A stretch of 64,000 nucleotides of DNA from Escherichia coli (GTDB lineage: Bacteria > Pseudomonadota > Gammaproteobacteria > Enterobacterales > Enterobacteriaceae), in NCBI RefSeq assembly GCF_030013595.1, contig NZ_CP122768.1; one strand, given 5' to 3'. The notes beneath the pieces are model-generated. The model made no database searches, was not told the origin of the DNA, and worked only from the letters and a program-made list of their open reading frames with translations. Shown piece after piece: positions 17,518 to 18,268 of this stretch (position 1 is the stretch's first letter; the number at the start of each line of letters is the position of its first letter). Made by a program: the position numbers and the translations under genes.

Positions 17518-18268
17518 GCATTTGAAATAAGCCTTATTGTATTGCAGCACTGGCGTATTTTTATTACGTGGGAGCAGGTTGTTTTGAAAAAGCATTCTGT
17601 TCTCTGGCTATGATTTGAGGCCAGGTTAGCCTCAGTGCTGATTTTTTTACGGCAGCAGAATGGTGCATTGCTGGTGGAGATTTTGTATTTCCTGGCAGGG
17701 TCGGTGATGCATCATTCTGGTGTTGTAAATAACACTATCGGGGCGCTCCTCAGGGCGAGGGTGGTTAAAAGAGTCGGTTTAGCGGGAAACCACAGTATTC
17801 ATACAGGACGGAATACTTCGGGAGGCACCCGACGCCTCGATTTTATTACAATTAAAAAATTCATTCCTTGCATTGACCAACCGCCGTATCTGGCGGTTTT
17901 TTTTATTCTTAATTCGAAAAAAGAAAACACGGACACTGATAATGTCCGTGTGGCAATGCCATGTAAGTCAGCGATGAATATGGCGCAAAAAAAGCGCGGC
18001 TGTCGGATTAACGCCGCGGGACAAAGTCCGTGAAGAAGAATAAGTATCGGTCTCCTTCCGGAGACGAGTTGATATTACTAAGCTTTAAAAATGGTTTAAA
18101 TCCTCAGATTGACCTTAATTTCCGGTAAGTCTTATTTCATTTTCTCCGCGCTACCTCCAGCGCACATCACATCAGGTAACGCCACACAAAAGGCATCTGC
18201 GGGTGCCTTTGACGGGTGTTTTTTTACGGGCCGCTGGTGGCCCTTTTTTATTTACAGGAGAAAAAAGT

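Follow-up and report, generated by a model that had tools for sequence, protein, structure and literature searches.

Putative RNA cassettes between the tRNA and holin genes of a lambdoid Escherichia coli prophage

The locus and its coding potential

The window considered here, a stretch of 64,000 nucleotides of Escherichia coli DNA, contains a lambdoid prophage, and the late region of this prophage is found in identical form in porcine ETEC strains. Within this region, 751 bp lie between the 3' end of tRNA-Gly (17517) and the ATG of the holin (18270), and the genes and predicted elements in and around this stretch are collected in Table 1. Between Q and the methylase, the OmpC-like porin gene runs in the opposite direction, so that late transcription must cross it in antisense; bidirectional terminator-like hairpins flank it at 14084-14103 and 14190-14221. 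The tRNA-Thr(UGU) copy has accumulated about 10 substitutions, in the D arm and the anticodon stem, and has lost its CCA with respect to the intact copies in loci L004 and L002; it is silent in ARAGORN and PGAP and is still recognized by Rfam. The order tRNA-Thr, tRNA-Gly, hairpin is common to all the relatives that were fetched. Moreover, a promoter-like site is found upstream of the tRNAs (17262-17289) and the spacing from tRNA-Gly(UCC) to the RNA cassettes downstream is fixed, two features suggesting that the cassettes may be co-transcribed with the tRNAs.

Table 1. Genes and predicted elements of the prophage late region, in window positions (parts of the leftward RNA are given from 5' to 3')
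Feature	Position	Strand	Remarks
Antiterminator Q	~13669-14052		First in the late gene order
OmpC-like porin	~14242-15339	-	Between Q and methylase
Small ORF			Between porin and DNA methylase
DNA methylase	16136-17182		Precedes the tRNAs
Decayed tRNA-Thr(UGU)	17364-17436	+	Rfam tRNA, 45.9 bits
tRNA-Gly(UCC)	17443-17517	+	ARAGORN, Rfam
Domain A	17545-17640	+	Closing helix and three hairpins, cloverleaf-like
Hairpin B	17646-17729	+	34-bp stem, z-score -7.5
Domain C	17737-17841	+	Five-helix junction
T1, predicted intrinsic terminator	17879-17904	+	Terminator scan
Candidate leftward sRNA, ~150 nt	17917-18065	-	Covariation, G-U strand bias
Leftward RNA, 5' hairpin	18065->18050	-	
Leftward RNA, conserved single-stranded stretch AUACUUAUUCUUCUUCA	18047->18031	-	
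Leftward RNA, hairpin	18029->18019	-	
Leftward RNA, hairpin	18018->17995	-	Followed by U7 (17993->17987)
Leftward RNA, hairpin	17961->17951	-	
Leftward RNA, terminator hairpin (palindrome)	17951->17927	-	Followed by UUUCUUUUUU (17926->17917); terminator scan
Putative sigma-70 promoter of leftward RNA	18072-18100	-	Read from the sequence
Hairpin h4	18148-18163	+	Compensatory TA<->CG at two pairs
Hairpin h5	18189-18210	+	52 G-U cells on +, 1 on -
T2, predicted intrinsic terminator	18228-18249	+	Terminator scan
Two holins	from 18270		Directly after the 751-bp stretch
M15 endolysin, then HNH and P27-family small terminase			3' of the holins

Other RNA matches are scattered over the window. An isrK-like RNA (63 bits) and a C4 antisense RNA (84 bits) are found in tandem at 8091-8279, adjoining the Rha/ash genes, and constitute a P1/P7-type antisense immunity module within a lambdoid prophage. 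A match to the ALIL pseudoknot (119 bits), which is normally a frameshift signal of IS3-family elements, lies on the - strand at 10780-10896, antisense within a helix-turn-helix gene of the replication region. Furthermore, the IS009 RNA and tmRNA (ssrA, - strand) are present at 42636-42834 and 43396-43758, and therefore the prophage or an adjacent island appears to occupy the ssrA integration hot spot, while the Phe leader at 61629-61754 marks the core chromosome.

An earlier reading of the stretch, made from the sequence only, had described it as non-coding DNA with no credible ORF, and the comparison with homologues agrees. The frame that it had discounted (17635-18033, 132 aa) is open only in the window's own allele, that is in 1 of 62 distinct homologues, most of the others meeting a stop at codon 44-48 or sooner, and PGAP labels it 'hypothetical protein' only in five identical ETEC genomes. 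Homology to a degraded protein-coding gene was also looked for: Pfam and PHROGs scans of all eight ORFs of the stretch gave no match, so that a decayed protein gene was rejected and the non-coding reading stands, with a 32-aa frame at 18030-18128 as its one caveat.

Folded elements and their modular distribution

Between 17100 and 18400 eight terminator-like sites were found, against 1.5 +/- 1.1 in shuffled sequences. The folding z-scores were -4.3 for 17600-17910, -7.5 for the long hairpin (17641-17735), about -4.2 on either strand for 17917-18066 and -4.1 for 18140-18262. Whole-region RNAalifold on both strands, run with only 10 sequences, was uninformative and was replaced by counts for each helix, in which the paired cells of the alignment were compared with those obtained after sliding the pairing partners, and the pairs changed on both sides with those in 500 shuffles.

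On the + strand, the element closest to the tRNAs is domain A, a predicted fold of 96 nt with arms of 9 to 11 bp. Its closing helix of 8 bp joins CAGCACUG (17545-17552) to CAGUGCUG (17633-17640) and is followed by an A and a run of seven U (17642-17648). The same MFE fold, with the closing helix and three inner hairpins, was recovered in 37 out of 37 distinct homologues, even where the interiors cannot be aligned. The possibility that domain A is itself a tRNA was considered and discarded, as no tRNA model matches it even at E <= 5 and ARAGORN and Rfam find only 17364-17436 and 17443-17517.

Hairpin B is characterized by a near-invariant apical part and by an internal loop on the 3' side, CCUGGCAGGG, at 17691-17700. 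In its alignment (A5) 97.1% of the cells are paired, against 34-56% when the partners are slid, and eight pairs are altered on both sides, a number reached by none of the 500 shuffles. Many of its G-U pairs are valid on the + strand only, being A-C mismatches on the other strand. In divergent copies the apical stem is swapped for a different complementary sequence and the CCUGGCAGGG loop stays near-invariant. Matches to mir-983, mir-92 and other microRNA-like Rfam families fall far below threshold and reflect the long hairpin only.

Domain C is closed by a helix between 17737-17745 and 17833-17841 and includes, among its inner hairpins, CGGG-AGGCA-CCCG (17818-17832). The single-sequence folding z-score is only -1.8; in the alignment (A3), 93.1% of the cells are paired against about 47% after sliding, eight pairs are altered on both sides, and the compensated cells number 42 against 20 in the shuffles. 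The terminator-like hairpin with T8 that the first reading had located at about 17880-17905 is real and corresponds to T1. Its stem (17879-17898) has a GC core (17881-17885 paired with 17892-17896) and a GTATCT loop, and the first two of its eight T (17897-17904) close the stem; across homologues the stem is retained and the loop varies (GTATCT, ATATCT, TCCACTG, ACACCA and others). T1 is thus predicted to be the 3' end of a + strand RNA. A sigma-70 scan inside the stretch gave no convincing promoter for + strand RNAs.

The last part of the stretch precedes the holin. T2 consists of the stem-loop GGGCCG-CUGG-UGGCCC (18228-18243) followed by U6, and is placed 7 nt upstream of the holin Shine-Dalgarno sequence GGAG (18257-18260). 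A scan for a GC-rich stem followed by a U-run retrieves T1, T2 and the - strand hairpin 17951->17927. In 76-78 of 88 loci the T2 block is found with 94-98% identity, and only 46 of these loci have the same holin; it is also present in phiP27 and in phage 683R6, which has a lambda-S-type holin. In the MFE fold of this part, UUCUCC (18142-18147) pairs with GGAGAA (18257-18262), a pairing that could mask the holin ribosome-binding site and that is weaker in the common allele (UUCUUU).

On the - strand, the palindrome cacggacactgataatgtccgtg lies at 17928-17950, exactly where it had previously been placed. Its reading as a + strand feature does not hold. In fact, in most homologues it contains three C-A mismatches on the + strand that are U-G pairs on the - strand, so that the palindrome is better described as the terminator of a candidate leftward RNA. 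Positions of this kind are 17934/44, 17936/42, 17937/41 and, outside the palindrome, 18051/64, and compensatory double changes are seen at 17932/46 (GC<->AT) and 17933/45 (AT<->GC). The four further - strand hairpins upstream of the palindrome are all paired, three of them with compensatory changes between two diverged alleles, and an unpaired stretch, AUACUUAUU(C/A)UUCUUCA, is conserved between the two alleles despite a neighboring linker that cannot be aligned. Taken over the entire unit (alignment A4), 98.8% of the cells are paired against 35-51% after sliding, and six pairs are altered on both sides (0 of 500 shuffles), a covariation that comes essentially from two alleles plus recombinants.

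The putative promoter of the leftward RNA is composed of TTTAAA (18100->18095) and TAATAT (18077->18072) with a 17-nt spacer. It has 8 of 12 consensus matches, under the threshold of the promoter scan. Among 29 distinct homologues the -35 block, GGATTTAAACC, never varies; the common allele has TAGTAT as its -10 box. From this promoter the RNA would start near 18065 and measure about 148 nt; alternatively, it may start near 17973 and measure about 57 nt. Rfam searches on the leftward RNA (E <= 5 over 17518-18270, E <= 10 over 17905-18080) gave no AsxR, AgvB or other family; its identification with AsxR or AgvB was rejected, as no match appeared even in the search confined to 176 bases. Matches to suhB/mmgR and anti-hemB on the right-hand module were set aside as a generic likeness of two-hairpin terminators. 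The leftward RNA is antisense to the late transcript. Its terminator (17951->17917) abuts the end of T1 (17904), and since the + strand series ends at T1 and the terminator of the - strand RNA is 12 bases away, the two units converge.

The stretch had also been described as an empty slot that may hold regulatory RNA structures. The second half of this statement is supported by the folded elements and by the compensatory changes and strand-specific G-U pairs, which back all of them apart from the almost invariable T2. The first half must be abandoned, as the slot is conserved like the flanking tRNA and holin genes and contains five or more structured elements for which covariation gives support. 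The comparative evidence thus indicates selection at the RNA level for domain A, hairpin B, domain C and h5 on the + strand, and for one RNA on the - strand.

Of 5426 complete E. coli genomes, 457 contain a match to the stretch; identity is mostly 80-93%, and the matched part is usually free of annotated features. One copy, 88% identical, is found in E. coli 042. A further 85 IMG/VR prophage contigs were recovered with a 25-mer from the long hairpin. Since most homologues are E. coli prophages at 80-95% identity, their counts cannot be taken as independent events. Hairpin B was detected in 387 of the 5426 genomes (about 7%), with up to 5 copies in a genome, and, together with the left-hand module, in only 2 of 50,697 phage records. 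Among the representative genomes of 100,044 species, none contains the exact hairpin 25-mer; with a degenerate version of the hairpin, 19 matches turned up in unrelated taxa, approximately the number estimated for chance, and a literal search of the literature for the element sequences found no occurrence.

The identity of the single segments ranges from 85 to 100%, no lower than in the flanking tRNA and holin genes, and breaks sharply at about 17360, 17730, 18140 and 18260, at the borders of the modules. When the loci are classed by the number of bases that separate the long hairpin from the pre-holin terminator, 11 loci (about 265 bases) lack both domain C and the leftward RNA unit, 5 (about 362 bases) have domain C only, 6 (about 465 bases) have the leftward unit only, and 44 (about 555 bases, the class of the window) have both; for the 5 loci above 1000 bases, domain C and the leftward unit could not be scored reliably. 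The long hairpin, T1 and T2 are the constant parts, T1 being found in every class of architecture, and the other cassettes are optional and freely combined, a pattern indicating that the cassettes are exchanged independently between phages.

In at least one of the loci above 1000 bases, that of the O141 strain P13-6 (L004), the extra length is a pair of TerB-family and DUF3927 genes (3767-4341), placed after the leftward RNA unit and before the T2 block, from which it follows that the site near 18150-18180 of the window accepts protein-coding morons. In phage SerU-LTIIb (L001), the LT-IIb prophage, tRNA-Gly, RNA cassettes and holin unit are duplicated in tandem (1201-2031 and 3107-3743), the second copy being devoid of the leftward RNA unit; the LT-II toxin genes of this phage are located 3' of the lysis cassette and not in the slot between tRNA and holin.

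Possible roles of the stretch

The explanation that best accounts for the ensemble, to which a probability of about 0.65 can be assigned, is that a lambdoid prophage of the phiP27 type has here, downstream of Q/PR', the leader of its late (lysis) operon, and that the moron site of this leader carries RNA cassettes in place of a toxin gene. According to this explanation, the + strand RNA would be made in the lysogen, either along with the tRNAs of the phage or from its own weak promoter, would stop at T1 and would be processed to a stable sRNA of about 170-390 nt, by analogy with STnc100 and PasD, with the 34-bp hairpin B plausibly acting as an RNase III or stability element. The leftward RNA would be produced from its own promoter near 18072-18100, would hold the position of the anti-sRNAs AsxR and AgvB and would act as a base-pairing sRNA through its conserved unpaired stretch. 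Together, T1 and T2 would keep constitutive transcription out of the lysis genes, and only RNA polymerase modified by Q and coming from PR' would pass them, after induction. Q-modified polymerase ignores such terminators in lambdoid phages. The structures have solid comparative support, expression and function being putative; RNA ends, abundance and Hfq binding are those that we infer from the sequence.

A different account, clearly less probable, is that of a purely cis-acting leader of the late mRNA, made up of terminators for Q dependence, processing sites that release the tRNAs and stabilizing hairpins, with no independent trans-acting sRNA. It agrees with the location of the stretch between Q/PR' and the lysis genes, with the presence of domains A and C, hairpin B, T1, h5 and T2 all on the strand of the late transcript, with a scan that found no strong internal promoter on the + strand, and with the constancy of T1, T2 and hairpin B as opposed to the optional domain C and - strand unit. 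What it leaves unexplained is the leftward element, which has pairs that form on the - strand only and a U-run terminator of its own; moreover, the relatives found at the same position, STnc100, PasD and AsxR, are discrete and abundant RNAs in uninduced cells. As far as T1, T2 and hairpin B are concerned, a cis-acting role is compatible with RNA cassettes at a moron site.

It is also conceivable, albeit unlikely, that domain A, hairpin B, domain C and T1 (about 17545-17904, about 360 nt) form one large RNA tied, physically and in function, to the phage tRNA genes, in which the near-invariant CCUGGCAGGG loop would be a protein-binding site. Such an RNA would go beyond the usual Hfq-dependent sRNA and might have a new function, for example in cis on RNA polymerase, helping late transcription past T1/T2, as the put RNA of HK022 acts on RNA polymerase in cis, or as a decoy or scaffold protecting or maturing the phage tRNAs against host defences that target tRNAs.

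Still less likely is that the stretch contains a small protein gene, the 32-aa ORF at 18030-18128 (MKKNKYRSPSGDELILLSFKNGLNPQIDLNFR), with the leftward RNA as its antisense regulator. This frame overlaps the conserved unpaired stretch of the leftward RNA. Of 29 distinct homologues, 27 keep it open and have a start codon, no other ORF of the stretch being open in more than 3; the start codon switches from GTG to ATG between alleles and, as read by eye, the stop codon is retained. However, a 1-nt deletion breaks the frame in the two remaining homologues, the 29 sequences are essentially two alleles, which makes the survival of the frame roughly a single observation, and a count by hand gives about 10 non-synonymous and 6 synonymous differences, with no clear signal of purifying selection. 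The ORF has no Shine-Dalgarno sequence, its start codon is inside a hairpin, and several of its differences are the compensatory changes of the hairpin 18050-18065. In addition, the peptide matches nothing in Pfam or PHROGs and, unlike type I toxins, is not hydrophobic. The two alleles, the two frameshifts, the missing Shine-Dalgarno and the compensatory hairpin changes make this ORF a weak competitor.

Finally, conservation at the DNA level, as recombination linkers for the exchange of lambdoid modules or as relics of decayed tRNAs with no RNA function, is very improbable: the mosaic breakpoints do coincide with the block borders, a decayed tRNA-Thr is next door and domain A is cloverleaf-shaped, but compensatory changes and strand-specific G-U pairs point to selection on a folded single strand, domain A matches no tRNA model even at E <= 5, and the same fold is kept despite divergent interiors.

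The interest of RNA cassettes at this site lies in the fact that prophage late leaders are the sites of insertion and control of Stx and other toxins, and that sRNAs encoded there rewire the regulation of the host in pathogenic E. coli. About 7% of complete E. coli genomes have the slot in its 'empty' version, which is in reality occupied by exchangeable RNA cassettes, a set that comprises a divergent relative of STnc100, a candidate for a new antisense partner, and a cloverleaf with a 34-bp hairpin linked to the tRNAs. If expressed, they would be new members of the prophage sRNA repertoire, and the natural combinations, with and without each cassette, would offer a way to probe their roles in the lysogen and in the timing of lysis.

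Comparison with known prophage RNAs

The sequence-only reading had stated that Stx genes sit at this position in Stx phages and had proposed a comparison with their late regions, which has been carried out. In phiP27 the order is that of the window, namely small ORF, DNA methylase, tRNAs, then two holins and the M15 endolysin, except that an insertion of stx2eAB separates the tRNAs from the holin; the statement is therefore correct for the closest Stx phage. The sequence shared by phiP27 and the window is limited to the last 84 bases before the holin. In 933W, the same layout of convergent RNAs was found.

In the Rfam scan that had been suggested, all the elements of the stretch scored under the family thresholds, and the genome records that were consulted give no RNA annotation for them; STnc100 (RF02076) does match 17712-17908 below threshold, with 22.6 bits (E 0.011) against a gathering score of 47. 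This alignment spans the full model, positions 1-206 of 206, and includes a near-identical GGGAGGCACCCG hairpin. True STnc100 copies score 109 bits in the IMG/VR contig L072 and 207.7 bits in 933W. A covariance model, R1, built from the domain C family, found these same two RNAs as its best non-self matches, with 27.1 bits (E 6e-5) for L072 and 24.2 bits (E 3e-4) for 933W, and aligned with both from end to end. On the basis of the sub-threshold Rfam score and the reciprocal R1 matches, domain C is termed a distant relative of STnc100 and not a member of the Rfam family. The likeness concerns the predicted architecture, in which a closing helix surrounds several hairpins, with GGGAGGCACCCG beside its 3' strand and then a linker and a terminator, as well as the position. 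In L072 (3793-4861, - strand) a copy of domain C is found about 615 bases downstream of the true STnc100, which implies that the two can coexist; beside this copy, hairpin B has lost its 5' half by recombination.

In 933W the order is tRNAs, stx2AB, STnc100 (+ strand, 207.7 bits) and AsxR (- strand, 88.1 bits). The 933W pair and that of the window are alike in being convergent + and - strand RNAs in a lambdoid late region downstream of Q/PR' and of the tRNAs. Their 3' ends are at 3983 and 3985 in 933W, two bases apart, and are predicted at 17904 and 17917 in the window. Unlike 933W, the window has no toxin gene before the RNA pair, which is instead preceded by the cloverleaf domain and the 34-bp hairpin, where 933W has only a hairpin of 11-12 bp. 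Furthermore, the leftward RNA is predicted to be about 150 nt long with an internal terminator-like hairpin, whereas AsxR and AgvB (RF02703, RF02702) measure 51-60 nt. Convergent sRNA genes at the moron site 3' of PR' have been described in Sp3, 4, 5, 9, 10, 11, 15 and 17 of strain Sakai (Tree et al., 2014; PMC4104026), and STnc100 is probably EcOnc27, the rightward RNA of the Sp5 pair. Eleven copies of STnc100 are present in the EDL933 prophages, where expression of copies has been reported and that of one verified by Northern blot (PMC5331693), and STnc100 has been located 75 nt after stx2B (PMC12370729).

A second group of relatives by position are the Pas sRNAs, which adjoin the holin/lysozyme operon and among which PasD is related to STnc100 (bioRxiv 10.64898/2026.05.13.724894). 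PasD1/PasD2 and PasA have been reported in EPEC E2348/69 (Pearl Mizrahi, 2021; Zhu, Shabalina and Storz, 2026), and PasD, PasA and PasC of EPEC are encoded next to the holin operon. PasD and PasA both lie between a moron and the holin/lysozyme operon. PasD is transcribed from the late strand and measures 172-173 nt; PasA is read from the other strand and has its start about 214 nt before the holin ATG, a distance predicted to be about 205 nt for the leftward RNA of the window. Identity with PasD or PasA was rejected, as a blastn comparison (word size 7) with the EPEC loci, taken by their published coordinates, gave nothing beyond chance; model R1 gave no match on the PasD loci L005 and L006.

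With regard to the terminators, lambda tR' and the late terminators of 933W have, like T1 and T2, a GC-rich stem with a U-run located between PR' and the lysis genes, and in the 933W record a tRNA promoter is annotated, along with several terminators around the tRNA genes and in the late leader. T2 differs in being placed directly at the holin ribosome-binding site and in being conserved across holin families. Stable RNAs co-transcribed with tRNA genes are represented by the species 1 and 2 RNAs of phage T4 and by the 3'ETS-leuZ sponge of E. coli. These resemble the window in having a structured RNA immediately 3' of a tRNA cluster, from which tRNA processing could release it, and have no sequence relation to the elements of the window. 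On the whole, the comparison suggests that the window reproduces the known layout of prophage sRNAs with different sequences, and adds to it domain A and hairpin B, linked to the tRNAs.
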